Notes under the pieces: model-generated
Database searches by the model: none
What the model saw: only the letters and a program-made list of their open reading frames with translations
What the model was told of the DNA's origin: nothing
Program-made: the position numbers and the translations under genes
Shown: positions 4,041 through 61,863 of the stretch, piece after piece
How the letters are laid out: each line of letters opens with the position of its first letter
Position numbering within the stretch: position 1 is the first letter of the stretch
Assembly: GCA_041650995.1 (NCBI GenBank)
Contig: JBAZJZ010000001.1
Coordinates: 227,166-291,165, forward strand
Direction: 5' to 3'
DNA: 64,000 bases
DNA from: Patescibacteria group bacterium
Lineage (GTDB): Bacteria > Patescibacteriota > Patescibacteriia > XYB2-FULL-38-15

Positions 4041-4071
4041 CCGACGCGGCTATTTTTGCGTCGGTTTTTTT
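4041..4071 (+). terminator. intrinsic terminator CCGACGC..GCGTCGG followed by TTTTTTT
   Basis: The same CGACGCG/CGCGTCG stem occurs at 5019 and 36463. Confidence 0.55.
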
Positions 4072-4072
4072 A

Positions 4073-4101
4073 TTGATTTTTTTCATCCATCGTGGTAAAG
4101 T
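4073..4101 (+). promoter_or_regulatory. promoter TTGATT-17-TAAAGT of cassette A3
   Basis: The flank resembles the wzx promoter region at 5049-5077. Confidence 0.4.
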
Positions 4102-4128
4102 AGGTTGATTTCCTAAAGGAGGAAGGGA

Positions 4129-5004: not shown

Positions 5005-5018
5005 TAGCGGAGGAGTTG

Positions 5019-5047
5019 CGACGCGGATAACGGTTCGCGTCGTTTTT
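5019..5047 (+). terminator. intrinsic terminator CGACGCG..CGCGTCG followed by TTTTT
   Basis: GC stem with a T-tract. Confidence 0.55.
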
Positions 5048-5048
5048 A

Positions 5049-5077
5049 TTGATTTTTTCTCTAAATCGCGGTAAAAT
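5049..5077 (+). promoter_or_regulatory. promoter TTGATT-17-TAAAAT for the flippase gene
   Basis: Hexamers and spacing. Confidence 0.4.
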
Positions 5078-5083
5078 TGGATA

Positions 5084-15477: not shown

Positions 15478-15495
15478 AGACCAAAACCCAAAGCT

Positions 15496-15595
15496 CAAAT
15501 GTCAAATCAAATCCAAAATCCAAAACCCAAAACAATTTTTAGTCATTTGAACTTTAGTCATTGATTTGAAATTTGGATTTTGACATTTGGATTTG
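15496..15595. repeat. long interrupted inverted repeat built from CAAATGTCAAA and ATCCAAAATCCAAA units. A terminator-like hairpin after the helicase gene.
   Basis: The left arm CAAATGTCAAATCAAATCCAAAATCCAAA pairs with the right arm TTTGGATTTTGACATTTGGATTTGG. A T-run follows. Confidence 0.5.
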
Positions 15596-15902
15596 GAAAT
15601 ATATTTTTATGTTCACTCCATTAAAAAACATCCTAGAAAAAAATATCCGCCAATCCGGTATTTCTCACCAAGTTTTGGCCGCTCAGGCAATTGAAAAATT
15701 CAACCAAATTTTGGTAGAGATTTTTGGGCCGGGAGTGGGGCGGCGGGCGAGAGCGATGTATTTACGCGGAAAAATTTTAACTGTCGGTTGTCTGTCGTCG
15801 GTTGTAACACAAGAGATTTATTTAAAGCGTGGAAAAATTATGAAAGAATTGAATCGACGGCTCGGCAGGGAAGTAGTGGCTGATTTAAAATTTAAGATGT
15901 GA
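15573..15902 (+). CDS. DUF721 (DciA-like) protein. The start is probably at the internal MFTPLK.
   Basis: The C-terminal pattern ARAMYLRGKILTVGCLSSVVTQEIYLKRGKIMKELNRRLG matches the DUF721 consensus. Confidence 0.55.
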   Translation: MDFDIWIWKYIFMFTPLKNILEKNIRQSGISHQVLAAQAIEKFNQILVEIFGPGVGRRARAMYLRGKILTVGCLSSVVTQEIYLKRGKIMKELNRRLGREVVADLKFKM

Positions 15903-16159: not shown

Positions 16160-16828
16160 ATGGGAGAAACAATGAGATTTGCTCCTCCTGAGATGGAATC
16201 TGGCGAGAGAGCTGATCTAGAAGCGAAACTTGATCAATTAAGAGGTGAATCAGAAAAAGCAGTGGAGAAGATAAGAAAAGCCGAAAGTCCAGAGGAAACA
16301 TTAGCTGCTATTTTAAAAATGGAAGAGTTTAGAGTGCAAGCCGCTCCTCTTGAAGCGGACTTAAGAAAGATAAGAGTGTTAGAGCAAACCGAAGGAATTG
16401 AGGCTGGTTTGAAGGGTGAGGCTCTTAAAATGGCAGAGCAAAGAACTGAAAATGCGGAAGCTGTTAGGGCCATTGAAGAAAAAATTGAAAAGCGTTCAGC
16501 TGAACTTAAAGAAGCTGAAGCAACTTTGAAAGGTGGGAGCGGTGTAGAAATTTTAGATGCCCTCACGGCAGTTGATAGGATCCAGGCAGAGTTAAGGGAA
16601 CTTGAAGTCTCTGCCAAAAGGTTAGCTATTGATAATTTAGCTTTAGCTAGCGATCTTCATACCCTTAAAGAGCAGGGGATCACAGAAGAAGAAATACCCT
16701 TTACTGCTGCAGAAAGTGAATGGTTTAAAAGCGGAAAAAAGAGATCAGATCTCTGGGAAATGGGGGTAGCAGAAAGGGAAAGGAGAATTGATGAACTGGA
16801 AGAAGAATTTTTTGCAAAAGCTGCTTAA
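16160..16828 (+). CDS. coiled-coil protein, 222 aa, E/K/A-rich, of intermediate GC
   Basis: Heptad-rich sequence. No enzymatic motif. Confidence 0.5.
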   Translation: MGETMRFAPPEMESGERADLEAKLDQLRGESEKAVEKIRKAESPEETLAAILKMEEFRVQAAPLEADLRKIRVLEQTEGIEAGLKGEALKMAEQRTENAEAVRAIEEKIEKRSAELKEAEATLKGGSGVEILDALTAVDRIQAELRELEVSAKRLAIDNLALASDLHTLKEQGITEEEIPFTAAESEWFKSGKKRSDLWEMGVAERERRIDELEEEFFAKAA

Positions 16829-16840
16829 ACTCAAAAAATT

Positions 16841-16880
16841 AAAAAGAGAGACCCTGGTACGACCGGGGTCTCTTTGTTTC
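16841..16880. terminator. bidirectional terminator AGAGACCC..GGGTCTCT flanked by A- and T-runs
   Basis: Lies between convergent genes. Confidence 0.55.
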
Positions 16881-16899
16881 TGTCCTCCTTGTTGGGTAA

Positions 16900-17475
16900 T
16901 TACGCTGCCGCCTCCTTTTCCGGGAAGAAGATGGAAGCGTTGTCTCCGGGAAGGAAGCCCCTTGACTTGTCTCCAAGCCAAAGGGTGACGCGCGCGACGT
17001 TCTGCGCGCGATTGTCTTTCCAGACGATTCTCTTGGCGTAGGAGTGCTCATCGAACTCGGAAACCGGAGAAAGCGGCAGGATGTACTTCTGGCCGAAGAT
17101 CCTGACTTTCTTCAGTCCGTCCGTGACACACTCGATCCCGAGGTTCTGGCCTTGTGGAAAAACGACCACCCGCAAGTCGCGGAAGATACTCTCGTCTTGG
17201 GTGCTTGTCAAAACCAAAACGAGGCTGTAATGGCGCTCGAAGACGTAGAGCGCTAGGTATTCCGTTTCTTGGAGCCAGGTCTCATGCGTCGGCTCAGGTT
17301 CGAGGAATTCGATATCATCAACCGCCCTCGTGTACGGAGCGACGCAGGTTGCCGTGTGTCGCTTCTTGTTGCCCCTTCTGTCGCGCAAGGCGCGGATACA
17401 GACGGCAAGCGAAGAGACGAGCCAGGCGAAGAAAGTCGTGATCCCAGCCCAGATTCCGAGAAAGAACCGCTTCAT
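16900..17475 (-). CDS. hypothetical 191 aa protein with an N-terminal TM/signal segment, GC-rich (cassette C)
   Basis: RBS AAAGGAGGT sits 5 nt upstream of the ATG. The N-terminal hydrophobic stretch is FFLGIWAGITTFFAWLVSSLAV. Confidence 0.55.
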   Translation of the reverse strand: MKRFFLGIWAGITTFFAWLVSSLAVCIRALRDRRGNKKRHTATCVAPYTRAVDDIEFLEPEPTHETWLQETEYLALYVFERHYSLVLVLTSTQDESIFRDLRVVVFPQGQNLGIECVTDGLKKVRIFGQKYILPLSPVSEFDEHSYAKRIVWKDNRAQNVARVTLWLGDKSRGFLPGDNASIFFPEKEAAA

Positions 17476-17572
17476 CGTACACCTCCTTTACGATGGAAGG
17501 TGCGAGGCGAAATTGGCGTTGGCTAAAAGCAGAATCGCCCAGCCATACAAGCCACGCTTCGCAGCTGTTTAC

Positions 17573-17599
17573 TTTATATTATATTACGGGATTTGTCAA
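17573..17599 (-). promoter_or_regulatory. promoter TTGACA-15-TATAAA on the minus strand for cassette C
   Basis: Read from the reverse complement of GGGATTTGTCAAGGG. Confidence 0.35.
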
Positions 17600-17676
17600 G
17601 GGTAAATGAGGTTTGCTGGTTTATTCTTAATTTGCTATACTTTTACTAGAATTTAACGAGGCAGATTTAAGGCTTT

Positions 17677-34598: not shown

Positions 34599-35228
34599 TT
34601 ATTTCAAGGGAAAAGATTTAAGAACAGAGTAAACCGACCCGTCAGAAGTAAGTTCACTTTCCATAAGTTCAACACTTTTTACAGGAAAAGTCATGGACGG
34701 AATTTTTACGCTGGCGATTTTACATCTGGACCAGTCCTTAATTCTGCCCAGAGTTAGATGTCCCTGCCACGGACGCGTATCAACTTTATGGCCAAGATTT
34801 TCGAGCATTACTTCAAGTTTACCAATCAAATCATGGAGAGTTTCCGTATCTTCTACCGCAGTAAAAAACACCCGTGGTTCTCGTTCATTCGGAAAACAAC
34901 CAGAAGTTCCAATATTTAATTTAAAAGATTCAATACGTTTAGTTATTTCTTCAATCCCCTCTTCCACCAGAGCAATTTGCTTTTCGCTTAGATCACCGAA
35001 GAAATGCAATGTTAGATGAAGATTTTCTGGTTCAACCCACTTTATCCCGTAATCAGGATTTAATTTTTTCAATTCTTCAATAATAGGGTCGAATTTTTTC
35101 TTTATGTCGTCTGGCAGATTTATGGCGATAAAAGTGCGTTTAGTCATAAATTTTCCGAAATTATTAGTGTTAAAATTATAGCATTTTTTTGTTTTTAAGG
35201 CAAACTTTATGCGTTGACTAAAATTCAA
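34599..35228 (-). CDS. thpR: RNA 2',3'-cyclic phosphodiesterase (2H family, ThpR/LigT). The real start is probably the internal MTKRTFIAI, about 35147.
   Basis: Two HxT motifs, HLTLHFFG and HLTLGR. Confidence 0.75.
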   Translation of the reverse strand: MNFSQRIKFALKTKKCYNFNTNNFGKFMTKRTFIAINLPDDIKKKFDPIIEELKKLNPDYGIKWVEPENLHLTLHFFGDLSEKQIALVEEGIEEITKRIESFKLNIGTSGCFPNEREPRVFFTAVEDTETLHDLIGKLEVMLENLGHKVDTRPWQGHLTLGRIKDWSRCKIASVKIPSMTFPVKSVELMESELTSDGSVYSVLKSFPLK

Positions 35229-35242
35229 TTTTTTGGTAAATT
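35214..35242 (+). promoter_or_regulatory. promoter TTGACT-17-TAAATT of the island D operon
   Basis: Same architecture as the cassette A1 promoter. Confidence 0.45.
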
Positions 35243-35292
35243 TTAGGCAGTGAGGCGGAAGCCGGGGTCTCCGGGTAGTTGGGATTTTCTCC

Positions 35293-35715
35293 GTGGCTCG
35301 GAGGAGAGAGGAGAGTAAAATAATGGCAGCGGGAAATTCTCGAGTAAGGTATGGTTCAGGTCATTCGACAAGAGAAATGCCCGTTCTTCCGGATTGCCGA
35401 CGGGGCCATGTCTGTATTTCTTCGTCTCGTGGAGCGGGCCATTGTGGCCACTGTGATACGGATTTCATCTGTCCTTCATGCAAACATAATGGCATGAAGA
35501 CCAAGGATTGCGAACCGCCTGCCTTCATCCTGCAGTGTCCCCGATGTCAACACGAAGAACGGATTCACTGGGTTGAGTTTGACATCCAGTGTCCCCGATG
35601 CGGATGTAAAAACGCTTCCGGGACATATTCGAGGTTGCTGGAACCGATCATTCAATGCCCGGACTGCGGACCGAGTAGGGGGGGTGTCGGTCGTGCAGAA
35701 AAGGAGGGGAAATGA
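35293..35715 (+). CDS. multi-zinc-ribbon protein with five CxxC-type pairs, GC-rich (D1). The start is probably the ATG at 35323, behind a GGAGGAGAGAGGAGAG RBS.
   Basis: CGHC..CPSC, CPRC..CPRCGC and CPDCG pairs. Confidence 0.55.
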   Translation: MARRREESKIMAAGNSRVRYGSGHSTREMPVLPDCRRGHVCISSSRGAGHCGHCDTDFICPSCKHNGMKTKDCEPPAFILQCPRCQHEERIHWVEFDIQCPRCGCKNASGTYSRLLEPIIQCPDCGPSRGGVGRAEKEGK

Positions 35716-35933
35716 GCAAACTGCCTGGAAGGCAAGAAGAGGGAAAAATTCCATCCTGGTTTTTGGACGGTCAAGGCCAGATTGGTTGCACGGCAATCGG
35801 AGGCAATCCTCCGTCGACTCTTCTGCACATACCCCCTGTTTTAGAGGGTGTGGATGTGGAACAAGCCTGGTGGCCAAAAAATGGGCTGGGAGGCGATTAT
35901 GAGTTGCTTCCCTGGCTGACGCGCCCAATTTGA
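35712..35933 (+). CDS. hypothetical 73 aa protein (D2)
   Basis: Overlaps the D1 stop in an ATGA. RBS AAGGAGGGG. Confidence 0.45.
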   Translation: MSKLPGRQEEGKIPSWFLDGQGQIGCTAIGGNPPSTLLHIPPVLEGVDVEQAWWPKNGLGGDYELLPWLTRPI

Positions 35934-35954
35934 ACAAAAGAAGGGGAAGACAAG

Positions 35955-36221
35955 GTGGCAAGAAAATCTGGACGTCGTAAGAACATCTTCAGTGGTCTTG
36001 GAATCTCTCCTGAACAAGAAGCTGCGCTCAGAAGAAGGGCGCCGCCGCTTTCGGAGAGACGGTGGCTCGAGATACAACTGCTCATTGCGCGGGATGCGTT
36101 GGCCGACAGTTTTCCCCTGGAACCGATTTTTGTCGTTCCGCCAATCGTGGGACGCGAAGAGCGCAAGCCGCGAAGATCGATTCTGATCGACAACTTCTCC
36201 GGAGTAGAAAGGCTTCGCTAG
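35955..36221 (+). CDS. hypothetical 88 aa protein (D3), GTG start
   Basis: RBS GAAGGGGAAG. Arg-rich. Confidence 0.4.
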   Translation: MARKSGRRKNIFSGLGISPEQEAALRRRAPPLSERRWLEIQLLIARDALADSFPLEPIFVVPPIVGREERKPRRSILIDNFSGVERLR

Positions 36222-36234
36222 GGAGAAGAACTAC

Positions 36235-36462
36235 GTGAGTGAAGACGCTAATTTAAAAGAGCGCGAAGAAGCTTTGCGCCAACGACTTGTTACCTGGGCA
36301 GCACTTACTCCGGAGGAACGTCTGGATGCGAGGGTAAAAAGACTTCGTTTGTGGAAGCGACTCGAGGAAGAAGCCACCGGTGTCTGCAGTCGCGAAGCTG
36401 GTCTGCCCGGTGACTGGGATATTCCTTGCCGACCCGACGTGGAGTTTAAGGAGGTGGATTAG
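36235..36462 (+). CDS. hypothetical 75 aa charged helical protein (D4), GTG start
   Basis: RBS GGGAGAAG. Sequence EERLDARVKRLRLWKRLEEEA. Confidence 0.4.
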   Translation: MSEDANLKEREEALRQRLVTWAALTPEERLDARVKRLRLWKRLEEEATGVCSREAGLPGDWDIPCRPDVEFKEVD

Positions 36463-36493
36463 CCGACGCGAAAGAGGAAGCGTCGGTTTTTTT
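36463..36493 (+). terminator. intrinsic terminator CCGACGCG..CGCGTCGG followed by TTTTTTT
   Basis: Same stem family as 4041 and 5019. Confidence 0.55.
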
Positions 36494-36521
36494 ATTATCT
36501 GATTTTTGCTATAATTAAAGT

Positions 36522-37979: not shown

Positions 37980-40613
37980 ATGCCAATGCTCCCGCAAAAT
38001 TTTACCACTAAATCTCAGGAAGCCCTGCAGGCGGCCCAGGGTTTGGTTTTTGAATATAACCATCAATATTTGGATCCTCTTCACGTTTTTTCAGCTCTTT
38101 TGGACCAGGAGGGCGGGATTGTTGGTTCGCTTCTTCAAAAACTGGGGATTAATATAGTTGATTTAAAACAAAGAATTTTAACAGAGTTTCAAAAATTACC
38201 AAAGCACGCCGGTCGGAGGCAAGGAGGTATGGCGCAAATGAATGTTGGGCAGGAAATGGTTCAAGTTTTTTATGCCGTGGAAAAAGAAGCCAAAAAAATG
38301 AAAGATGAATATATTAGCACTGAACATATGCTTTTGGGATTAGTAAGCGTGAAAAGCCGGGCTAGTGAAATTTTATCTGCGGCGGGCGTAACCTACGACG
38401 GAGCGCTTAAGGTTCTCGCTGAAGTTCGCGGTACGCAGAAAGTTGATTCACCGGAACCGGAAGCAAAATACCAAGTTTTGGAAAAATATACGATTAATCT
38501 TACAGAATTAGCTCGTCAGAAAAAACTTGATCCGGTCATAGGCCGCGATGAAGAAATCCGTCGCGTGATGCAAGTGCTTTCGCGCCGGACAAAAAATAAT
38601 CCGGTTTTAATCGGCGAGGCTGGTACGGGAAAAACCGCGATTGTCGAAGGTTTAGCGCAGCGAATCGTGGCCGGCGATGTGCCAGAAAGTTTAAAAGATA
38701 AAGAGTTGGTTTCCTTGGATTTGGGTTCACTTTTGGCTGGGACAAAATTTCGCGGTGAATTTGAAGACCGATTGAAGGCTGTAATTAAAGAAGTAAAACA
38801 AGCCAGCGGAAAAATAATTTTATTTATTGACGAATTGCATACAATCGTTGGGGCGGGCGCGCTTGAGGGAGCGATGGACGCTTCTAATATGTTAAAACCG
38901 GCTCTGGCTCGCGGTGAATTGCATACGATTGGCGCGACAACCATCAAGGAATATCATAAGTACGTGGAAAAAGACGCGGCCCTGGAACGGCGTTTCCAGC
39001 CAGTCTTTGTCGGCGAACCGTCGGTAGAAGATACGATTGCTATCTTGCGTGGCATCAAAGAAAAATATGAGGTTCATCACGGCGTAAAAATTACCGATGC
39101 GGCGATTATCGCGGCGGCAACTCTTTCGCATCGCTATATTTCAGACCGTTTTCTACCCGACAAAGCAGTGGACTTAATTGATGAAGCAACATCCGCACTC
39201 AGAATGGAAATTGATTCTATGCCGACCGAGCTGGATCAGCTGAAAAGAAAAATGATGAAATTGGAAATTGAGCGGCAAGCTTTGATGAAAGAAAAAAATG
39301 AAGACGTAAAAGATGAACTTAAAAAATTAACTAAAGAATTAGCCGAAACGCAGGAAAAATCAAAAGAATTAGAGATCGGCTGGCGTTATGAAAAAGATTT
39401 GATTAGCCAAATTAGAAAAGCGCAAAAACAAATTGATTATTTAAAACAACAAGCTGATATTGCCGAGCGAAAAAGCGAATTAGAAAAAGTCGCCGAGATT
39501 CGTTATGGCAAAATTCCGGAATTAGAAAAAGAAATCAAGACTTTGGAAAAAAAATTAAAAAAAGCGCCAGCAGACAAAAGAATTTTGCGCGAAGAGGTTA
39601 CTGACGAAGATATCGCGAAAGTTGTTTCCCGTTGGACCGGCGTTCCGGTTTCAAAAATGCTTCAAGGTGAGGTGGAAAAATTGGCACACGCCGAGGACGA
39701 ATTGAGCAAAAGAGTTATCGGTCAGAAAGACGCGATAAAAACTATTGCTAATGCGTTGCGTCGTTCACGGGCCGGAATTTCTGAAGAGAAAAAACCGATT
39801 GGCTCATTCATTTTTGTCGGCCCGACCGGCGTTGGTAAAACTGAACTTTCAAAAGCTTTGGCGGAATTTATGTTTAATGATGAAAACGCGCTTGTCAGGG
39901 TTGATATGTCAGAATATATGGAAAAACATTCCGTGGCGCGGCTCGTTGGCTCCCCTCCCGGTTACGTCGGCTATGATGAAGGCGGACAATTAACCGAAGC
40001 TATTCGCCGCCGGCCGTATTCTGTCGTTCTTTTTGATGAAATTGAAAAAGCCCATCCCGAAGTCTTTAATATTTTGCTTCAGATTTTAGACGATGGGCGT
40101 TTGACTGACGGTCGCGGCCGCACCGTGAATTTTAAAAATACGATTATTATCATGACCTCAAATCTTGGTAATCAGGTTATTCGAGATTTTTCTATTGGTT
40201 TTCAAGATGGAGAAAATCGTGAAATAAGCCGCGACAGCGAAATGCGCAGTAAGATTATGGACATTCTTCGAGAGACGTTTAAGTTGGAATTTTTAAACCG
40301 TATTGATGAGATTGTGATCTTCAAGAGTTTGGGAAAAACGGAAATCGGAAAAATTATTGAATTGCAGTTAGTCGAAGTTCAAAAACGGCTTAATGCTAAA
40401 AAAATAAAATTGGATATTGCCGATACAGTTAAAAAGATGCTCGCGGAAAAAGGCTTTGATCCGATTTTTGGAGCCCGTCCATTGAAACGTGTTATTCAAA
40501 ATCAGATTTTAGACGAGCTGGCGCTGCAGATTATTGAGGGAAAAATAAAAGACGGAGATAAGGTGGAGATTGACCTAGGTAAAGAGAAAAAAATTACATT
40601 TGCAATAAAATAA
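37980..40613 (+). CDS. clpB: ClpB disaggregase chaperone (AAA+)
   Basis: Two Walker A motifs, GEAGTGKT and GPTGVGKT, with a long M-domain coiled coil. Confidence 0.9.
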
Positions 40614-40628
40614 AAGTATTTAAAAATT

Positions 40629-40654
40629 ACGGCCGAAAAAGCCGTGGTTTTTTT
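40629..40654 (+). terminator. clpB terminator ACGGC..GCCGT followed by TTTTTTT
   Basis: Stem with a T-tract. Confidence 0.5.
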
Positions 40655-40656
40655 AT

Positions 40657-40704
40657 AAAAAAAGACCCGACTCGGAAGATATTTCAGTCTCTTCACGAGT
40701 CGGG
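40657..40704 (-). terminator. minus-strand terminator CCCGACTCG..CGAGTCGGG for the island E operon
   Basis: An A-run precedes the stem on the + strand, which gives a T-tract on the - strand. Confidence 0.5.
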
Positions 40705-40722
40705 GTGACTCCAGTCTGGGAG

Positions 40723-40914
40723 TCAGCAGGGTCTAAACGCGATGGGTTCGCGCCGCCAGCCGAAACCGTCCGTCATCTTCTCGCTTCTCCCCCCTTCGCG
40801 AAGCGCGCCGTCCTGTGGTGCACCACAAAAGGCAATCGCAACCGGCGGTGGGGACGAAAAGAGCCGTGCCAGGTTTCGCGTGACGAAGTGCGCGAACAGT
40901 CCAGCACTTAGCAT
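40723..40914 (-). CDS. hypothetical 63 aa protein (E3), GC-rich
   Basis: RBS GGAGGAGG sits 6 nt upstream of the ATG. Confidence 0.35.
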   Translation of the reverse strand: MLSAGLFAHFVTRNLARLFSSPPPVAIAFCGAPQDGALREGGRSEKMTDGFGWRREPIAFRPC

Positions 40915-41016
40915 GCCGGACCTCCTCCGTTCCCTCGGATTTGGGTCAGTGTTAGGTTCCCGCCATTCTTCTTTCTTCGCCCGGGTTTCAGCGCGACGGC
41001 TGACGCTGTCCCGGGC

Positions 41017-41217
41017 TTATGCAGCGAGCGAGCACTCTCCCAAGATCACCTTGGTGAAGACCGCGTCGGACGTGCCTCGGGTTCCAGCTGTTGGCTGGTT
41101 CCCGTGCGCACCAAAAGTGCCAAGGAAGATGTCGGGCAAGGGTTCGAGCCAGAGATCCGGAACGAGCGTCACAGCGACCGCGACGCCAATCATCGGACCG
41201 AGGAAATCCACCATCAC
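41017..41217 (-). CDS. hypothetical 66 aa protein (E2), coupled to E1 by an ATGA overlap
   Basis: An internal ATG of the 126-aa track ORF overlaps the E1 stop. Confidence 0.35.
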   Translation of the reverse strand: MMVDFLGPMIGVAVAVTLVPDLWLEPLPDIFLGTFGAHGNQPTAGTRGTSDAVFTKVILGECSLAA

Positions 41218-41450
41218 CGCTCTCCTTTCGCGAATCGCCTTCTCTCCCCTACGTTCCTTATCTTGCCCCAAACCCACATGATTCCGGAGAGGAATGAGAA
41301 AAAGCACAGGAAGTATGGCCACAGCAAGATCACGATAATGATGAGGGAGACGTCTGACAGATTGGACTTCAATTCCTTCCGGAGTTGCTTCCAACATACC
41401 ACGACTACTAGGGCCGCGACGATCCCGACGATCCAGATTGTGGTTGCCAC
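41214..41450 (-). CDS. hypothetical 78 aa small membrane protein (E1), GTG start
   Basis: Two hydrophobic helices. RBS GAGAGGGAAG. Confidence 0.45.
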   Translation of the reverse strand: MATTIWIVGIVAALVVVVCWKQLRKELKSNLSDVSLIIIVILLWPYFLCFFSFLSGIMWVWGKIRNVGERRRFAKGER

Positions 41451-41513
41451 GTTACTTCCCTCTCTATTTCTACGCGGGCAAAATGCCTCGCGTTAAGGTT
41501 TTAACCTTTTGAT

Positions 41514-41542
41514 TAGATTAAGACAGGATTAATTTTCTGTCA
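41514..41542 (-). promoter_or_regulatory. promoter TTGACA-17-TAATCT on the minus strand for the E operon. Coordinates are approximate.
   Basis: Reverse complement of CTGTCAAGAG...AGATTA. Confidence 0.35.
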
Positions 41543-41599
41543 AGAGATAATTTATAAATAAAAAGAGCCGACCCAAGGTTTGACAACCTATGGATCGGC

Positions 41600-41860
41600 G
41601 GATGACGAGAGTTGGCGTCCTCGAAGTAGTACCGTCAGGTTGACGGTCGCTGAGTAGCGTCAAGGTGTTTGACTACACCGAGGACAGAAGCCTGGTGGCG
41701 CCGGTGGGGTCCGGTCAGGTCGACGTGGACGTCGGGGAAGCGAACATGTGATTTCCGCTGTCGCGCGAACGCGCGAACGGACCGTACCTGATTCCCATCT
41801 GATCCTCCTTCTTCCGTAGGGGGGTTGCCTTTCACCGTGGAAGACTTCCCCACCCCATGA
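41600..41860 (-). other. GC-rich structured transcription unit with three tandem palindromes, a 27-codon ORF (MGIRYGPFARSRDSGNHMFASPTSTST) behind a GAAGGAGGA RBS, and its own imperfect terminator at about 41560-41600
   Basis: The palindromes are CCGTCAggTTGACGG, GACGCT..AGCGTC and GGTGTttgactACACC. Confidence 0.3.
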
Positions 41861-41866
41861 TGTCAA

Positions 41867-41895
41867 TATATTAACACAAGATTGTGTTGTTGTCA
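41867..41895 (-). promoter_or_regulatory. promoter TTGACA-17-TAATAT on the minus strand driving the structured unit
   Basis: It sits back to back with the + strand extended -10 (TGgTAAAAT) of the next gene. Confidence 0.35.
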
Positions 41896-41997
41896 AGAGG
41901 AAAATGTGGTAAAATAGAATCAGCAGTCATTTTGAATTATGGTTTTTGTTTTTAACTTAGCCATAATTCCCGATTCATAATTCATGACTAAAAACCC

Positions 41998-48350: not shown

Positions 48351-48477
48351 AAGTTACTTGAAGTCTCGGTCATTTTAACTTATGACCTTTTGATATTATC
48401 TCAAGGATCTATCGTTAAAATTGTCCTACTCTTCTGCTCGCTCCCGTCTAAACGAGAGCTTATTTAATTATGTTTAC

Positions 48478-48505
48478 ATTATACACTATTCTATGAATTT
48501 GTCAA
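48478..48505 (-). promoter_or_regulatory. promoter TTGACA-16-TATAAT on the minus strand
   Basis: A perfect consensus. Confidence 0.45.
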
Positions 48506-48508
48506 GAT

Positions 48509-48542
48509 AAAAAGAAGTGGCGTCAACTTGCGTTAACGCCAC
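48509..48542 (-). terminator. minus-strand terminator GTGGCGTcAAC..GTTaACGCCAC for cassette F
   Basis: One mismatch in the stem. T-run on the minus strand. Confidence 0.45.
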
Positions 48543-48580
48543 TAAGAGAAATGATTTTGTAGTTCGGGTGAGGATTTGGG

Positions 48581-48973
48581 CTAGCCCCTCCATGAAACGT
48601 CGGTCAGGGGCACGCTGACCTCTACCTGGCGTTGCGGCCAGCCGTTCTCCGGACCGATCCTCCTGGCCGTCTCGCCCATCGTCTGGACGAATCGGCGAAG
48701 CGCGGAGTCGCTCCGACCCTCCCTCGTTTCGAAGGGAGGCGCGAGGTGCTCCAGAAGATCGGGCGAGAAGCCAATCGTGATCTGGAGCGGATCCTTGATG
48801 CCGTGTTCCTGGCTCGCAGGGATCGAGCTGTCGGGCATCACCGTGATGTCTTCCGGTTTCAATTTCAACCCGAAGTTGAAACGGCGGCATGCTTCGCGGA
48901 GCATCCGCTCGAGCCGTCCACAGCTGAACTCGTGGCTTCCTCCTCCTTTGACCAAAAATTTCACTTTGCCCAT
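48581..48973 (-). CDS. hypothetical 130 aa protein, GC-rich (cassette F)
   Basis: RBS GGGAAGGAGAAAG. The alternative 178-aa and 137-aa frames are R-rich or low complexity. Confidence 0.5.
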   Translation of the reverse strand: MGKVKFLVKGGGSHEFSCGRLERMLREACRRFNFGLKLKPEDITVMPDSSIPASQEHGIKDPLQITIGFSPDLLEHLAPPFETREGRSDSALRRFVQTMGETARRIGPENGWPQRQVEVSVPLTDVSWRG

Positions 48974-49032
48974 CTCTTGTCTTTCTCCTTCCCTTTCCCC
49001 CTACTGCCGCCCTATGCAGCAAACTCGATTAT

Positions 49033-49060
49033 ATTTTATACTTAATTGATATTTTGTCAA
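49033..49060 (-). promoter_or_regulatory. promoter TTGACA-16-TAAAAT on the minus strand for cassette F
   Basis: Consensus hexamers. Confidence 0.45.
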
Positions 49061-49111
49061 GATTAAAAACCTCCGCTTTCACGGGGGTTTTTGTCAAAAC
49101 TTTTGTCCCGG

Positions 49112-50815
49112 TTATTTTTTTAACTTTTGAATAAATATATCACAAAAAATTATATATCCAATTCCCAAAGGATGGTTCAAATATGGACTAAAAAAATTTG
49201 TGGCTAAAAGGGCGGCTAATCCGGCCAAAAACCCGAATGCTATAAATACCCCAGAACGCCCCAAACCCCAGCCAGAACGCCAAATTTTAGCGATAAAAAG
49301 AAGATAAACAACTAGTCCGGCCAAGCCAATTTTAAGCATTATATCCAAATATCCCCATTCAAAAGCGTAGGTTGTAAAAATCCCCCCTGGATTAACCTGA
49401 ACCGCGCGAGGATCACTGCTTTTGTAAGTGACTGTTGTCCCAAACCCTGAACCAATAATTGGATGTTTTATAATTGCTTGTCCAAGCGGTGGCAAAAGAT
49501 CCCAACGGCTCCGGACCGCGGCTTCGTCTAAATCGGTCAGGCGGTCGCTAAACATTGAAGCAAAAGAAATTCTTCCCGGCTCGGGAAATGGAAATTGCGC
49601 GGTCGCGAAAGTCGCGGACAAAGAAATTACTAAAATGGCGAGGCCGGCTAAACCAATTTTTACAATTTTTCCCAAAGAAAATTTTTGAATAATTAAAATT
49701 ATCAAAAGTGCGAGAAGTCCGACCGCGAGCCCAACCCAAAAACTTCGAGAAAAACTGATCAAAACCGAAGTCAATGATCCAATCGCCAATAACCAATATC
49801 TCTTGTCCTTTTTGTTTTGCCAAATTAAGAAAGCGGAAAAAATAAAAAACCCAATCAGTAAATAAATCTGCGACTGGAAAAATATTCGGTAAAAACCGCT
49901 TGGCATTAATGTAACTTCTCCGATTAAAAATTGCCGGAGCCAACGATAGATCGGAAGAACTGCGACTTCAAAACCATGAGAAAAAATGTAAAGGAAGAAA
50001 AAAGTTTTGATAATAATAACCGTAACGGCGGCGGTGAAAATTTGTAAAACATTTTCAATTTGTTCGCGCGATTTTATAACATCAACGAGCGGGAAAATAA
50101 TGCCAAAATAAAGCCAGCCATTAAAATCAAAAAATAAATTTTGGAAAGAGTTGCCGCGAATTAATCCCCAAATAAATCCCCAGATAATAAATGCAAACAA
50201 TATCCAATACCATTTATTTAGCGAAAATTTAAAATCCCGTTTTTCAATTCTTCTATATACCCAAACTGCCATCACAATTAAAAATAAGGCAATGCGCAGA
50301 GAGACCGAAGTTCCGCCTAAATCAAAATAAAATAAATATCCTTTTGAACCAATAAACAATTCTGCTAATAGGATATAAATTCCATATTCCAATTTTTCCA
50401 AAGTTAAAACTAAAGTCAGGCCAAGAATAACAAAAAATGATACTTTATTAAAGAGCGGGAAAAAATACGCGACAAAAGACAAAATTAACGCGAAAGAAAC
50501 GAAGAGCAGCGAGGTTTTAAAATATTTTCCGAATAAGTTCATATCTTGACAATTTATATTTTTATTGATAGATTGTAGTGTAGCCTGAACAATCTCGTTT
50601 AGGCCAGAAGGAGGGTATAAGGGATGAATTCCCGACTCGAAAGACTCAAGGTGACGATCGCGAAGTGCGAGAAGATCGAGGAGATTTTCGCCAAGCATCG
50701 CGTTCGCGGAACGGAGCCCACCCACTACGACGACGTGATCGCCGGCTTCGACACTCCGGCGCGAAGCGGCTTTCTCTTGAGGTGGGATCTCGTGGTTAAG
50801 GGTTCGGCCGGCCAC
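49112..50815 (-). CDS. O-antigen ligase/polymerase-like (Wzy_C-type) polytopic membrane protein. The true start is probably ATG at about 50542 (MNLFGKYF).
   Basis: About 12 TM segments. The N-terminal 95 aa of the track ORF are GC-rich and antisense to cassette H. Confidence 0.6.
   Translation of the reverse strand: MAGRTLNHEIPPQEKAASRRSVEAGDHVVVVGGLRSANAMLGENLLDLLALRDRHLESFESGIHPLYPPSGLNEIVQATLQSINKNINCQDMNLFGKYFKTSLLFVSFALILSFVAYFFPLFNKVSFFVILGLTLVLTLEKLEYGIYILLAELFIGSKGYLFYFDLGGTSVSLRIALFLIVMAVWVYRRIEKRDFKFSLNKWYWILFAFIIWGFIWGLIRGNSFQNLFFDFNGWLYFGIIFPLVDVIKSREQIENVLQIFTAAVTVIIIKTFFFLYIFSHGFEVAVLPIYRWLRQFLIGEVTLMPSGFYRIFFQSQIYLLIGFFIFSAFLIWQNKKDKRYWLLAIGSLTSVLISFSRSFWVGLAVGLLALLIILIIQKFSLGKIVKIGLAGLAILVISLSATFATAQFPFPEPGRISFASMFSDRLTDLDEAAVRSRWDLLPPLGQAIIKHPIIGSGFGTTVTYKSSDPRAVQVNPGGIFTTYAFEWGYLDIMLKIGLAGLVVYLLFIAKIWRSGWGLGRSGVFIAFGFLAGLAALLATNFFSPYLNHPLGIGYIIFCDIFIQKLKK
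50546..50574 (+). promoter_or_regulatory. promoter TTGACA-17-TAGATT for cassette H. It abuts the ligase start codon on the other strand.
   Basis: Seen in sequence. Confidence 0.45.
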
Positions 50816-51094
50816 AGAGAAAACCTCCTGGGGCGAGAACCGACCTGCATCGAGATTTCTCTCTCGGGCGGGGAACGGGGTGACCGGCTGATCATCCTCT
50901 CCTACCTCCCGGAGACCCGCGGCTGGACGATCGAAGGATCGACCGATATCGGTCTGGACGGGATTCCAGCCATTCGCAACCTGGCCGCCGACTGCAGGCT
51001 TTCGGCCGGCGAGGAGCGCCAGATCGGTGAGGACGAAGCGATGAAGATCATCGCCACGCTCGCCGTTTTCTATAAGAGCCAGCCCGTGGGCTAG
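50624..51094 (+). CDS. hypothetical 156 aa protein, GC-rich (cassette H)
   Basis: RBS GAAGGAGGG. Confidence 0.55.
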   Translation: MNSRLERLKVTIAKCEKIEEIFAKHRVRGTEPTHYDDVIAGFDTPARSGFLLRWDLVVKGSAGHRENLLGREPTCIEISLSGGERGDRLIILSYLPETRGWTIEGSTDIGLDGIPAIRNLAADCRLSAGEERQIGEDEAMKIIATLAVFYKSQPVG

Positions 51095-51121
51095 ACCTCG
51101 ACGGACGGAGGAACGAACTAC

Positions 51122-51165
51122 CGCCGACTAAAAAGCGAAAGCTAATTAGTCGGCGTTTTTTTATT
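51122..51165 (+). terminator. terminator CGCCGACTAA..TTAGTCGGCG followed by TTTTTTT
   Basis: 10-bp stem. Confidence 0.55.
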
Positions 51166-52009
51166 TTTTAAAACTTTGTGCAGACCAAGCAAGGATCAAG
51201 CTTAACGGTCGGAGAATCTGAATTGCAAGCCACTCCCCTTTTGTGCCGTGCTTTTTAAAATAATAAGATAAACTTCGGTTAAAATCTTTTTGTTTTTTAA
51301 TACCCATGGCTTGTTTAAAACTTTGCCCAAAATGATGAATAATTTTCGCCTCTGGAGTATATAAAATTTTAAAATCCGCCTCTTTCGCGCGTTTACAAAA
51401 ATCAACTTCCTCAAACCAAATCCAAAAATTTTCATCAAGCATCCCGATTTTATTTATCACTTCTCGGCGAATCAGCATAAACGCGCCCATTACCTGATCA
51501 GCTTCTTGTATTTTTTCATAATCAAAATCCTGAACTAAATATTTATACATCGTTTTGGAGTGTGGCAGGAGATGGTGAATTTTTAATAAAATGAAAATTT
51601 GCGAGGCCAAGTCTGGAAAAGCGCGAACTGACGGTTGAAGCGACAAATCTGGATTTAATAATTTACAGCCGCCGATGCCGCACTCGGGATGAGTGTCCAT
51701 AAATTGAACCATCTTGCCTAATGCGTTATCCAGAATTTCCGTATCCGGATTTAAAAGTAAAATATACCGACCACGAGATTTTTTTATTGCTAAATTATTT
51801 CCTTTGGCAAAACCCAAATTTTCCGCGCTCGCTGTTAAATCAACTTGGGGAAATTTTTCTCTTACCATTTCTACACTTCCATCGCCTGAATTGTTATCCA
51901 CGACAAAAACTTCAAAAGTAATATCTTTTGTTTGTTCAAAAATTGATTTCAAACATTTTTCTAGCAAATCCTTGACTTTCCAATTTACGATAATGATTGA
52001 CAAGTCCAT
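51161..52009 (-). CDS. GT2-family glycosyltransferase
   Basis: LSIIIVNWK..VVDNNSGDGS. Confidence 0.75.
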   Translation of the reverse strand: MDLSIIIVNWKVKDLLEKCLKSIFEQTKDITFEVFVVDNNSGDGSVEMVREKFPQVDLTASAENLGFAKGNNLAIKKSRGRYILLLNPDTEILDNALGKMVQFMDTHPECGIGGCKLLNPDLSLQPSVRAFPDLASQIFILLKIHHLLPHSKTMYKYLVQDFDYEKIQEADQVMGAFMLIRREVINKIGMLDENFWIWFEEVDFCKRAKEADFKILYTPEAKIIHHFGQSFKQAMGIKKQKDFNRSLSYYFKKHGTKGEWLAIQILRPLSLILAWSAQSFKK

Positions 52010-52010: not shown

Positions 52011-52712
52011 TTATAAATGATGTTTTGCTTTGATAATTTTCAAAGCGGCACTGTATTTTTTTATCGCCTTTGGCGCCCAACCAATTTTTTCCCAAGGAAT
52101 TTTATACATAAAACTTGGCAGCCAAGAAGAAATTCCGGTTCGGCGAGGTTTTACAGTAAATAAAAATTCGGGCACCCAAATACCAACGTGTCCTTGCTCA
52201 GCCATCGTTAGCCACAAATCCCAATCCTGAAATTTTTTTAAACTTTCATCCCAGCCGGGAAAGTGTTCGCGACGAATAAGTGTTGTAGAAGTAATATAAT
52301 TCATTTTCTTAAGCGCCTCGCCATCAAACTCATGAAGACCAAATTTTTTTCTGCCCCACATAAAAGATGAATAGGCAAAAGATGCTTCGGGATGATTTAA
52401 AAGCGCGTCTAACATTTTTTGAAGCATTTCCGGTTTGGCGTCAATATCGGCATCAGCAAAAATTATAAACTGGCTGGTTGATTCCCTAAATCCCCTATTT
52501 CTTGCTGCCGGCGCGCCAAGATTTTTTTGGTTAATAATTTTTATTCGGTCTTTATATTTTTCCAAAACTTCAGCCGTGTTATCCGTTGAACCATCATTAA
52601 CTACAATAATTTCAAAATCTTTGAATGTTTGGTTAAACAATGATAAAAGACACGCTTCAATCGTGTCTCCGTGCTGGTAGGTTGGGATTATTACGCTTAT
52701 TTTTGGGAACAT
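52011..52712 (-). CDS. GT2-family glycosyltransferase
   Basis: ISVIIPTYQ..IIVVNDGSTDNT. Confidence 0.75.
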   Translation of the reverse strand: MFPKISVIIPTYQHGDTIEACLLSLFNQTFKDFEIIVVNDGSTDNTAEVLEKYKDRIKIINQKNLGAPAARNRGFRESTSQFIIFADADIDAKPEMLQKMLDALLNHPEASFAYSSFMWGRKKFGLHEFDGEALKKMNYITSTTLIRREHFPGWDESLKKFQDWDLWLTMAEQGHVGIWVPEFLFTVKPRRTGISSWLPSFMYKIPWEKIGWAPKAIKKYSAALKIIKAKHHL

Positions 52713-52742
52713 ATTTTTATAATTATAAAGGTTTTTGCTTTA

Positions 52743-52789
52743 AAAAACAAGATAAAAAGATCCACCAGGGCACAGCCAGTAGTGGATCA
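52743..52789 (-). terminator. minus-strand terminator GATCCAC..GTGGATC with a T-run
   Basis: Downstream of the GC-rich paralog. Confidence 0.5.
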
Positions 52790-52818
52790 GATGGAAAATA
52801 TTCGGTTGTACTGCTCGG

Positions 52819-53280
52819 CTACCTCACGGGTTGGAATTGGATCTTGCCCTCATCCCCGGTTCTGCTCACGATCTCCATGTAGTAGAGTTCGATCTCGAGC
52901 CTGGGGCAACGCCGTTGCAGCGTATCTCGCGCGGCTCGCATATCGTCCTCATGGGCCGCTCTCTCCGCTTCAAGGCTCGGGAACGCCTCCGAACCGCCCC
53001 AGGCCTTGCAGTCGCGATGGGCGATCAAGATGACCCGCGTAGCTTGGTGGTGATGGTCAGAGACCCTACTGAACGCACCCAGGAAAACGTTCCTTGTTTC
53101 TCGATCGGTGTAGACCCTCGGCCCAGAAGGAAAAGTGTAGGGCGTGTAGAATAGAATGCCCAGCTCGTGCCTCAAGAAATCCTGGTGCTGCTGGACAAAC
53201 CGATAGTCCAGACAGAAGACGGCTACTACCGGGACTCTCAGTTTGAGATCAACCAGGTACAACTTACTTGCTTCTCTCAT
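52819..53280 (-). CDS. beta-carbonic-anhydrase-like zinc-site protein, the GC-rich copy (cassette I)
   Basis: CLDYR (CxDxR) and HRDC (HxxC). RBS AAGGAGGAGGG. Homologous to the adjacent native gene. Confidence 0.55.
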   Translation of the reverse strand: MREASKLYLVDLKLRVPVVAVFCLDYRFVQQHQDFLRHELGILFYTPYTFPSGPRVYTDRETRNVFLGAFSRVSDHHHQATRVILIAHRDCKAWGGSEAFPSLEAERAAHEDDMRAARDTLQRRCPRLEIELYYMEIVSRTGDEGKIQFQPVR

Positions 53281-53372
53281 CTTCCCTCCTCCTTAACTCC
53301 TCCCCCTGTTTATTTTTTCAAAAAATTTAAAAAAATAAACCGAGAGACGTTATCTTTCGGCAAAGAATATTT

Positions 53373-53807
53373 TTACTCAACTGGATTAAATTCTATGTTT
53401 TCACCAATAATTTCCGCGTAAAACATACTGACCGAAATTTTTGGGAATTGCTCAAGCAAAATATCTCGGACAGTTTGTAAATCTTTTATTTGCGTTGCTT
53501 CTTCAGTCGCCAGATCCGGAAAAGCTACTGATCCACCGTAAGCGCCGCAATCGCGATGGGCAATTAAAATAATTTTTTCAATATGGTGCAAATTAATTGA
53601 CACATTTTTGAGCGCTTCAAGAAAAACGTTACGCGTTGGTTCGCTGACTAAGGCTTTTGGTCCGCCCGGAAAAACATATTGATCAAATTCTTCAAAGCCA
53701 AGTTCGCGCGAAATAAATTGTTCATGCTGAGTTCGAAATCTTGGATCAAGACAATAGATCGCGGCTACTGGAACATGATGAAAATTTTTAAAAGGATATT
53801 GTTGCAT
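53373..53807 (-). CDS. beta-carbonic-anhydrase-like zinc-site protein, the native AT-rich copy
   Basis: CLDPR and IAHRDCGAYGG. It aligns with 52819..53280 along its full length. Confidence 0.55.
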   Translation of the reverse strand: MQQYPFKNFHHVPVAAIYCLDPRFRTQHEQFISRELGFEEFDQYVFPGGPKALVSEPTRNVFLEALKNVSINLHHIEKIILIAHRDCGAYGGSVAFPDLATEEATQIKDLQTVRDILLEQFPKISVSMFYAEIIGENIEFNPVE

Positions 53808-60649: not shown

Positions 60650-60695
60650 GCTTTTTAAAAAAAATAGGGGGCCGCCAGAGATGGCAGGCCCCCTC
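60650..60695 (-). terminator. minus-strand terminator GGGGGCC..GGCCCCC for cassette G
   Basis: An A-run on the + strand gives a T-run on the - strand. Confidence 0.5.
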
Positions 60696-60703
60696 ATAGG
60701 GAA

Positions 60704-61798
60704 CTATCGAAAATGGGCTGCGTTGCATGCCCACCTCGCGTATCCCTCCCACACGGGTGAACATTCCAGTCCTCCTTCCTTGAGTAGCTGAATGAACTTC
60801 TTCCTTCGATTTTTGGACGGAGGAAGAAGGCTGATTTTGCTTGCGCCACATTCTGGGTTGATTCGCGAGATCCTCACCAAGATGTGCCTTCTCTGGGAAT
60901 GGAGTAAGCGGATTAATTTTTCCGCGTGAGAATCGGAATCGTTAACCCCTTGAATCAGTGCGTAGTGGATCACGAACTTTACGCGTACTGCTTCTGCGTA
61001 CGCTGTTCCTAGATCCACAATTTCCTGAACGGGGTCCCTGGCAGGAATGAAGTGTCTCCGTTCTTCATCAGTAGGAAAATGCATGGAGAAGCGGAGTTGG
61101 ACGCGGTACTCGTCGCAGAACCTCACGTCATTGAGCATCTGCTGGATACCACTCGCAATGCCTGATGTGCAGAGAGAGAAGAATACTTGAACGCCACGCT
61201 TGGCAAAAATCTCATCAAGTCTCGTAACGGTCTCCTTTACGGCCTCATACCGCAAGAGTGGCTCACCGGCAGCCGAGAAGGAAATCACGAGACACTTCCT
61301 CTCTCTTCTCCAGAAGCGGTTTGCGAGTGGCGATTTCCTGAGGATCAAGCCAATCAAGTTCAACATTTCGAATGGGCTGAGGTGATAACAGGAGGTAAAC
61401 CTCCCAATGTCACAGAACGAGCAACCACCCTGCCAACCTTGCTTCCTGCCCCACGCGGCCAATTCACAACCGCAGGACACTGGCACCTGAAGATTGGCGT
61501 GAACCCGCTTGTAGGGCAGATCCCGATAGATGATCGGCGTAATATTACGCCTCGTGACTCTCGCCCACAATTCTTCAGCTCCGGGTCGATCGTTAGAACC
61601 CTGGATGAGGCTCCGGTTTCTCACGATTTCCAGATCCTTACCTCCAAGTTCGCAGAGGATTTCGGCCCTCTTGCGGCATTCTTCTCTGGATTCCATTTCT
61701 TCACCATATGGCTCCACTTTTTCTCTGTAATCCACCCTCCGGCTATTCCCTAAGTGGTCCGCCGAAATTCGTCTTCCTGACGTTCTTCGGTAGACCAC
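60704..61798 (-). CDS. radical-SAM-like enzyme with a CX14CX2C cluster motif and GEPLL, GC-rich (cassette G). The start is uncertain: GTG at 61798, or in-frame ATG at about 61696.
   Basis: CELAAWGRKQGWQGGCSFCDIG and ISFSAAGEPLL. The rest of the window is AT-rich. Confidence 0.5.
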   Translation of the reverse strand: MVYRRTSGRRISADHLGNSRRVDYREKVEPYGEEMESREECRKRAEILCELGGKDLEIVRNRSLIQGSNDRPGAEELWARVTRRNITPIIYRDLPYKRVHANLQVPVSCGCELAAWGRKQGWQGGCSFCDIGRFTSCYHLSPFEMLNLIGLILRKSPLANRFWRRERKCLVISFSAAGEPLLRYEAVKETVTRLDEIFAKRGVQVFFSLCTSGIASGIQQMLNDVRFCDEYRVQLRFSMHFPTDEERRHFIPARDPVQEIVDLGTAYAEAVRVKFVIHYALIQGVNDSDSHAEKLIRLLHSQRRHILVRISRINPECGASKISLLPPSKNRRKKFIQLLKEGGLECSPVWEGYARWACNAAHFR

Positions 61799-61835
61799 TT
61801 AATCTTTAAATTTAAATTAAAGAACCCGAAAGATT

Positions 61836-61863
61836 ATCTTATAACATTTACACTATTTGTCAA
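61836..61863 (-). promoter_or_regulatory. promoter TTGACA-16-TAAGAT on the minus strand for cassette G. The -35 overlaps the histidine kinase stop codon.
   Basis: Seen in sequence. Confidence 0.4.

Follow-up and report, generated by a model that had tools for sequence, protein, structure and literature searches.

A strongly modified RlmN/Cfr-like radical-SAM gene exchanged between strains in the histidine kinase-atp slot of Patescibacteria

Results

Organization of the locus

We analyzed a stretch of 64,000 nucleotides (nt), hereafter the window, from a Patescibacteria group bacterium (contig JBAZJZ010000001.1 of assembly GCA_041650995.1, positions 227,166 to 291,165). Our subject is a GC-rich gene on its minus strand, which encodes a protein related to the radical S-adenosylmethionine (SAM) methylases RlmN and Cfr. 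In every locus of this family, genes for an OmpR-type response regulator and a PAS-GAF histidine kinase lie on one side of the gene, and atpI and the ATP synthase (atp) operon lie on the other. The family comprises types A (including the window gene), B, and C, all with a CX14CX2C cluster motif. A more distant type D, found in the same slot, has the canonical CX3CX2C motif. Related loci and proteins are referred to by L and P numbers, respectively. The features of the window locus are summarized in Table 1.

Table 1 Features of the radical-SAM gene and its flanks in the window.
Feature	Position	Strand	Basis
Promoter-like site, TTGACA-16 nt-TAAGAT	61836-61863	-	Consensus scan (10/12); boxes conserved in position in related loci
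Conserved leader stem-loop, AAGTGGTC-UA-CCGAAG...UUUCGG-C-GGACCACUU	61751-61801	-	Inverted repeats, folding, covariation; left edge of the variable block
Shine-Dalgarno-like GGTGA (61705-61701) and likeliest start codon ATG (61696-61694)	61694-61705	-	Homologue starts, Shine-Dalgarno sequence of related loci, pLDDT
RlmN/Cfr-like radical-SAM coding sequence (type A allele), 330 aa, stop included	60704-61696	-	NCBIfam, PDB, Foldseek, hhalign, within-type dN/dS
Putative cluster-binding motif C77-X14-C92-X2-C95 (330-aa numbering) with 11-residue insertion	61412-61468	-	Invariant in full-length members
G144-E145-P146, putative SAM-binding GEP	61259-61267	-	Invariant in the family and canonical relatives
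C324 in C-terminal W-A-C-x3-H-F, positional equivalent of E. coli RlmN Cys355	60725-60727	-	Nearly invariant in the family
Intrinsic-terminator-like GC stem (GGGGGCC..GGCCCCC), then T-run	60657-60693	-	Sequence and RNAfold; right edge of the variable block
Allelic cassette swapped between strains (approximate extent)	60660-61745	-	Identity profile of the window against L015 and L007

The open reading frame (ORF) at 60704-61798 was confirmed to be a real gene and encodes 364 amino acids (aa) if read from the GTG at 61798. The original prediction for this stretch, made from its sequence, had left the start codon ambiguous between this GTG and the ATG at 61696. The ATG, which gives a 330-aa protein, is most likely the start, for four reasons. 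The homologues P0002-P0006 begin at a Met aligned to it. An AAGGTGA-like Shine-Dalgarno sequence lies 5-6 nt upstream and is conserved in related loci. Residues 1-33 of the long form were unstructured in the AlphaFold model (pLDDT <50), and the stretch upstream of the ATG is conserved as base-paired RNA, not as a peptide. The 364-aa reading is thus over-extended.

The flanking signals agreed with those described originally. The -35 hexamer of the promoter-like site, which may serve as the promoter of the gene, overlaps the stop codon of the histidine kinase gene (TGA, 61862-61860). On the opposite side, the terminator-like stem and T-run are directly followed by a promoter-like site ahead of the atp operon (TTGACC-17-TAGAAT, 60648-60620). 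An equivalent strong stem with a T-run was present 3' of the gene in all related loci. The stem in the window was not flagged by the consensus scan because of an internal mismatch.

The leader hairpin (AAGTGGTC...GGACCACTT), which had also been noted, is real. Its inverted-repeat arms are 23 nt long, and the window leader folded with z = -4.5 against shuffled sequences. Across 11 loci, 9 of the 21 consensus pairs showed compensatory double changes. The same long stem-loop is present in the leaders of all type A-C loci and of one type D locus (L021), some 50-90 nt before the start codon. It lacks a T-run and matched no Rfam family. In several loci, a small GNRA-capped hairpin overlaps the ribosome-binding site. 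A leader peptide or attenuator was considered and rejected, as no short ORF was conserved across the 11 leaders. The hairpin may act as a 5' stabilizer, a processing site, or a binding site for a regulatory protein. No further copy was found in the 64-kb window, and no comparable hairpin lies beside its other GC-rich islands.

Relationship to RlmN and Cfr

The original prediction had called the product radical-SAM-like, and profile searches and structure prediction bore this out. The only strong matches in NCBIfam were the RlmN and Cfr models, with E-values on the order of 1e-15 (2e-15) and scores of 52-57 bits, against cut-offs of 290-633 bits. The window protein scored 56.6 bits with the RlmN model TIGR00048 (cut-off, 290) and 53.6 and 56 bits with Cfr models (cut-offs, 550 and 530); the Cfr models scored about as well as the RlmN models, and the protein was far below the Cfr cut-offs of 468-550 bits. 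Scores with the RlmN model fell stepwise from type D (184.5 bits) to types C (90.4), B (85.7), and A (56.6). In Pfam, the long form gave nothing significant, and the 330-aa protein gave a sub-threshold Radical_SAM match (20.5 versus 29.5 bits); types B and C passed this threshold (34.4 and 45 bits).

The best solved relatives in a PDB sequence search were RlmN 6fz6 (E = 1.8e-15) and Cfr 9p0p. From the family alignment, AlphaFold produced a model with a mean pLDDT of 71 and a pTM of 0.74. When it was searched with Foldseek, the top 10 PDB matches were all RlmN or Cfr (E = 1.6e-13 to 2e-10), followed by pyruvate formate-lyase activating enzyme (2e-6), and only radical-SAM structures were matched. 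Comparison by hhalign with 30 canonical RlmN/Cfr-like proteins gave a probability of 100% and an E-value of 6e-46. The protein belongs to the radical-SAM superfamily and is predicted to bind an iron-sulfur cluster. Its function, which had been left open, is now narrowed in part by these closest relatives.

Both motifs reported for the ORF were present and are conserved among homologues. VSCGCELAAWGRKQGWQGGCSFC corresponds to Cys-X14-Cys-X2-Cys (C77 codon, 61468-61466), and GEPLL lies at 61267-61253 within AAGEPLL. The three cysteines and the exact X14 spacing are kept in every full-length member, across three types that are 36-45% identical. Compared with the CX3CX2C motif of the 30 canonical proteins, the family has an insertion of exactly 11 alignment columns between the first two cysteines, within which G, GW, and G are conserved across types.

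RlmN and Cfr use a C-terminal tail cysteine as methyl carrier (PMC9692996). C324 and the cysteine in A-A-C-G-Q-L of the canonical proteins are equally far from the last core strand. C324 takes the position of the methyl-carrier cysteine (C355 in RlmN, C338 in Cfr) within a different local motif, and its methylation is putative. A second catalytic residue, the resolving cysteine (C118 in RlmN, C105 in Cfr), precedes the first cluster cysteine by 7 residues and was invariant in the canonical proteins (30/30). At this Cys(-7) position, type A, including the window protein, has Q and type B has L; among the CX14 types, only type C retains Cys.

RlmN (TIGR00048; PDB 3RFA, 5HR7, 6FZ6) was thus the best match by sequence, profile, and fold. 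Features common to both are the GEP motif, the CxxC that closes the cluster motif, the tail cysteine, and a radical-SAM core extended by beta strands. Unlike RlmN, the window protein has CX14CX2C, lacks the Cys118 equivalent as types A and B do, and has W-A-C-x3-H-F as its tail motif in place of A-A-C-G-Q-L. Alignments to RlmN start after the N-terminal helix region, and in the window protein the beta extension follows the single helix that is left of the N-terminal domain. The gene is also multi-allelic and strain-variable, unlike a housekeeping rlmN. Cfr (23S rRNA A2503 C8 methyltransferase; TIGR04432, NF000424; PDB 9P0P) belongs to the same enzyme class and, like the window gene, is a horizontally exchanged, self-contained unit. 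The window gene differs from it in having no mobile-element context and no leader peptide, and in the absence of the Cys105 equivalent from types A and B.

Distribution and ancestry of the slot

The family is rare. A word-indexed search of 5.8 billion clusters returned 8 proteins, and an exhaustive profile search of 1.84 billion representative proteins returned three clusters and fragments. The next best protein in the latter search was the 434-aa P0012 (108.8 bits), followed by ordinary RlmN/Cfr-like proteins at up to 88 bits. Of the 185,579 species genomes covered by pattern scans, 3 carried the family, as did 5 JGI metagenome contigs. No relative was found among 2.9 million viral contigs, and a phage origin was rejected on this result. 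All family records are from Patescibacteria, and the named ones are Candidatus Falkowbacteria. One 886-kb chromosome, OZ246416.1 (L002/L010), is titled "uncultured Gammaproteobacteria bacterium" and carries a Patescibacteria-type locus, with a kinase and an AtpA that are 74% and 92% identical to those of the window. This label looks wrong.

In all sampled relatives whose kinase is at least 62% identical, the slot between the kinase gene and atpI was filled by an RlmN-like radical-SAM gene. Other genes occupy it in a Falkowbacteria genome whose kinase is only 56% identical. The type D proteins in this slot are P0012 (L008, GCA_037440105.1; kinase 62% identical) and a 429-aa homologue at L021 (GCA_041737355.1; kinase 65% identical). 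Unlike types A-C, to which they are 29-35% identical, both have CX3CX2C, Cys(-7), a C-G-Q tail, and a weak N-terminal receiver (REC) domain of about 150 residues (Pfam E = 0.0035; NCBIfam ActR/PrrA E = 5e-4). Among the 1.84 billion representatives, P0012 is the closest relative outside the family, and the L021 gene shares GC richness and a homologous leader hairpin with the window gene. Because canonical-motif genes occupy the same slot in these more distant relatives, the slot is ancestrally occupied, and the window gene is a derived form of the ancestral occupant and did not arise by a new insertion. The original description of a GC-rich island inserted between the kinase gene and the atp operon holds for the composition; the word inserted is misleading for a slot that is occupied in relatives, and the island-like feature of the locus is the exchange of divergent versions described below.

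The REC-fused genes (L008 8001-9305; L021 6182-7471) directly follow the response regulator and histidine kinase genes. This architecture suggests a phosphorylation-controlled RNA methylase. We know of no description of a REC-RlmN-like protein.

Allelic types exchanged between strains

The family genes fall into deep types, and these do not follow the backbone on which they are found. Type A comprises the window, L013, L011, and L001-L003 (64-76% mutual identity), type B comprises L005, L012, L014, L015, L017, and L020 (78-84%), and type C comprises L007, L018, and L019 (75-89%). Pairs of loci of different types had similar kinases and dissimilar radical-SAM proteins (Table 2). Different types were found together in the samples Ga0172379 and Ga0172380.

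Table 2 Identity of the kinase C-terminal half and of the radical-SAM protein in pairs of loci.
Pair (types)	Kinase C-terminal half	Radical-SAM protein
L013 (A) and L014 (B), same metagenome	94%	42%
Window (A) and L015 (B)	92%	40%
Window (A) and L007 (C)	86%	37%
Window (A) and L001 (A)	80%	69%

AtpB was 96% identical between the window and L014/L015. The change in identity is sharply bounded. Comparison of the window with L015 and L007 gave 75-90% identity on both sides and 20-60% inside the block. In a sliding-window comparison that included L013 and L014, flanks of 85-97% nucleotide identity dropped to 35-55% exactly from the leader hairpin to the terminator.

Within types, dN/dS was 0.05-0.12, and dN was equal to the kinase dN of the same genome pair. 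Since these values show constraint at the level of the kinase, the types are old, functional lineages that moved between backbones, not products of runaway divergence.

GC-rich composition of the gene

The 1.1-kb block of the gene has a GC content of 0.52 and a third-position GC content (GC3) of 0.59; the GC content of the window is 0.405, and the GC3 of the neighboring genes is about 0.35. The genes of types A-C and the type D gene of L021 were likewise GC-rich (GC, 0.52-0.57; GC3, 0.58-0.68; flanks, 0.37-0.46 GC), and the type D gene of L008 was near its background. Synonymous sites were saturated within types (dS, 0.8-2.9). As the high GC3 persists despite this saturation, the composition is maintained and is not a relic of transfer, and recent, unameliorated horizontal transfer was rejected as its source.

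GC-biased gene conversion at a recombination hot spot, a hypothesis put forward in PMC4450053, and selection on the mRNA both fit the data and are not mutually exclusive. Compared with synonymous-codon shuffles, the coding sequence folded with z-scores of -4.3 in the window, -5.2 in L001, -2.7 in L003, -3.8 in L005, and -1.7 in L007; control genes gave -0.7 to +1.4. Strong mRNA folding was rejected as a general trait of GC-rich islands, as other island ORFs gave z-scores of -0.2, -3.0, -0.6, and +0.9. A conserved RNA structure over the whole coding sequence was rejected as well: the RNAalifold consensus of all types (-44 kcal/mol) had many broken pairs, and the covariation term within type A was unfavorable (+4.7). 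The possibility of a non-coding RNA in place of the gene was also discarded, because dN/dS indicates a constrained protein and Rfam was empty at gathering thresholds; around the gene, Rfam gave only noise at E-values up to 10. A 188-aa antisense ORF inside the gene (61187-61753, plus strand) is probably spurious, given the scarcity of stop codons in GC-rich DNA.

Discussion

Proposed function

We favor, with moderate confidence, the interpretation that the gene encodes a class A radical-SAM methylase paralogue of the RlmN/Cfr type that is specific to this lineage. We class it as a new, strongly modified branch of the RlmN/Cfr class: it lacks several of the features that define the family, yet its mode of action is most probably the same in general outline. 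We infer that the protein binds a cluster and transfers a methyl group, that its substrate is an RNA, and that the gene is regulated. Its ancestor would be an RlmN-like gene with a fused receiver domain and the canonical motif, which more distant relatives carry in this slot, downstream of the two-component system. It would be expressed from its own promoter, with a structured 5' leader and its own terminator. C77, C92, and C95 would coordinate a [4Fe-4S] cluster on a loop that the insertion extends by 11 residues, and the GEP motif would bind SAM. C324 on the flexible C-terminal tail would first be methylated; the methylated C324, activated by the 5'-deoxyadenosyl radical, would then attack a nucleobase at an sp2 carbon; the base is most likely an adenine in an RNA. 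As the release cysteine of RlmN and Cfr is missing from types A and B, release of the adduct in these types would use another group, or the chemistry would differ at this step. The inner clade would hold at least three ancient functional types, and homologous recombination in the conserved flanks would be the simplest way of swapping them between strains.

Several observations weigh against this interpretation. All RlmN and Cfr family cut-offs were missed by a wide margin (56.6 bits versus 290-633). Mutagenesis has shown that RlmN and Cfr without the resolving cysteine cannot release the enzyme-RNA adduct (PMC9692996), and its loss is expected to block turnover. In the model, the N-terminal helical RNA-binding domain of RlmN (HhH2-like) is reduced to one helix (long-form residues 38-51). 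The cluster loop and the C-terminal tail were of low confidence, and their geometry rests on the model. Finally, one type A copy (L011/P0008, Candidatus Falkowbacteria) carries an in-frame deletion of the whole cluster motif, so the gene may be able to decay or may have a cluster-independent role. In this copy (L011, about 5920-6669), the N-terminal helix is joined to the region after the motif, all three cluster cysteines are gone, and the rest is 73% identical to the window protein.

The loss of the resolving cysteine also allows a more speculative proposal. The enzymes without it could use a new release route that involves the 11-residue insertion, or act as single-turnover RNA traps, in either case as alleles kept by selection for a role in conflict; we regard this as fairly unlikely. 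Equally tentative is its evolutionary part, in which balancing or diversifying selection would maintain three ancient alleles that are distinguished at this residue and exchanged among co-occurring strains; the role would then lie in conflict with a phage, host, or competitor and not in housekeeping modification of the ribosome. In its narrower form, types A and B would be natural trap enzymes whose single turnover ends in a covalent enzyme-RNA state, and the cassette would reflect an arms race. RlmN C118 mutants do build up a covalent RNA adduct (PMC9692996), some type B proteins, such as that of L014, have only four cysteines in total, and deep alleles co-occur in one metagenome on near-identical backbones, which is typical of such selection. 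This narrower form is improbable: type C, with slot and leader in common, retains the resolving cysteine; the role of the base could pass to another residue, such as the Glu that follows C77 or the conserved His at +4 from C324; and the cassette has no partner gene. The PADLOC-DB defence models gave no match for types A-D at E-values up to 0.01, and membership in a defence system was rejected on this basis.

More conventional functions were weighed against the paralogue interpretation. A Cfr-like resistance methyltransferase acting on A2503 C8 or a neighboring rRNA position, with the leader as an inducible attenuator like those of erm and cfr, would explain why Cfr models score about as well as RlmN models. 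It would also explain the exchange of a self-contained unit of promoter, structured leader, gene, and terminator between strains and the GNRA-capped hairpin over the Shine-Dalgarno sequence in several loci. We consider it unlikely, since the conserved leader peptide required for such attenuation was not found, the gene always occupies one chromosomal slot and was seen on no plasmid, transposon, or viral contig, the scores are far under the Cfr cut-offs, and Cfr needs Cys105 (PMC9692996), which types A and B lack. A housekeeping RlmN (m2A2503 in 23S rRNA, m2A37 in tRNA) that looks odd because proteins of the Candidate Phyla Radiation (CPR) evolve fast is also rather unlikely. RlmN models and structures scored best, and the 64-kb window, which is the part of the genome searched, contains no other RlmN-like gene. 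The presence of rlmN is patchy among CPR genomes (PMC12641178), and a divergent form could therefore be overlooked. The protein, however, fell far short of the equivalog cut-off (56.6 versus 290 bits), Cys(-7) is missing from types A and B, and the N-terminal domain is reduced. A housekeeping rRNA enzyme would not be exchanged, as these types of about 40% identity are, among strains with 85-97% identical ATP synthase and kinase genes. The family was also found in very few of the scanned species genomes, and one lineage has a deletion of the cluster motif.

The deletion in L011 and the loss of the catalytic Cys(-7) in two types would also be expected if the gene were a relic of its RlmN-like ancestor, either in decay or without catalytic activity. 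This is very unlikely, given the low within-type dN/dS, a dN equal to that of the neighboring kinase, the cluster cysteines, GEP, and C-terminal cysteine that are invariant across types of about 40% identity, and an insertion length fixed at 11. The QueE-like spacing pointed out in the original prediction proved to be an analogy. Some QueE (7-carboxy-7-deazaguanine synthase) enzymes do have the same CX14CX2C spacing, through an extended loop in an otherwise canonical cluster motif (PMC4389238). Beyond the superfamily, no homology to them was detected: QueE was matched neither in NCBIfam nor in the PDB sequence search at E-values up to 1, nor by fold, the fold subclass is different, and no motifs are shared. 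The QueE motif TLQGEG is absent, as had been stated, and the neighborhood consists of the two-component system and the atp operon, with no que genes nearby. The canonical relative without the insertion in the same slot indicates that the insertion was derived within the RlmN-like lineage. An identity as QueE was rejected as extremely improbable, and the two CX14CX2C insertions are of independent origin.

Significance of the family

For enzymology, a single genomic context offers functional-looking enzymes of types A and B without the resolving cysteine, type C with it, and type D as a canonical, ancestor-like form. This is a comparative series for studying adduct resolution and the effect of the cluster-loop insertion. 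From the viewpoint of evolution, the locus is a sharply bounded, multi-allelic cassette exchanged among near-identical strains of uncultured, ultra-small, reduced-genome Patescibacteria, and a GC-rich gene maintained in an AT-rich genome is a test case for GC-biased gene conversion versus mRNA selection. The family proteins miss the Pfam thresholds and are now labelled "hypothetical", which concerns genome annotation.

Other features of the window and related genomes

At least seven more GC-rich islands (0.51-0.61 GC, with GC3 of some ORFs up to 0.78) were found in the window of 0.40 GC, at 3950-5100, 16750-17650, 35200-36500, 40550-41950, 48400-49100, 50500-51250, and 52700-53300. Nine of the ten island ORFs had no Pfam match. 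Unlike the radical-SAM gene, they mostly fold no better than codon shuffles. The islands resemble a flexible pool of GC-rich genes within an AT-rich CPR genome. One of them contains a 140-aa ORF (35293-35715, plus strand) without a Pfam match but with many CxxC motifs (CPSC, CPRC, CPRC, CPDC), which suggest a small protein rich in zinc ribbons. No Rfam family reached its gathering score across the 64 kb, not even tRNA.

Two tandem Pro_CA_2 genes (putative carbonic anhydrase) follow atpC on the minus strand, at 52819-53280 and 53373-53807. The AT-rich copy (53373-53807) is closer to the single copies of L001 and L002 (53% and 69% identity) than the GC-rich copy is (45% and 46%), and the two copies are about equally similar to that of L008 (58% and 56%). 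The GC-rich copy (GC3 0.69), which is 45% identical to the AT-rich one, is an extra paralogue.

Extra GC-rich ORFs, which differ from genome to genome, also lie between conserved genes in the related genomes. In L003, a 360-aa ORF (2377-3459; GC 0.62, GC3 0.77) lies between a tRNA synthetase gene and cvpA and has no counterpart in L001, L002, or L008. An 87-aa ORF separates atpA from atpG in L002 (13203-13466). In L001 (12120-13649), the ORF calls break atpA and atpD into fragments; GC-rich ORFs occur inside the pieces of atpA and in the atpA-atpG interval.

Elsewhere in the window, AT-rich imperfect inverted repeats with CAAAAYCCAAA-like units (15469-15602; 42-nt arms, 71% complementary) adjoin the end of a 991-aa ORF, which ends at 15477.

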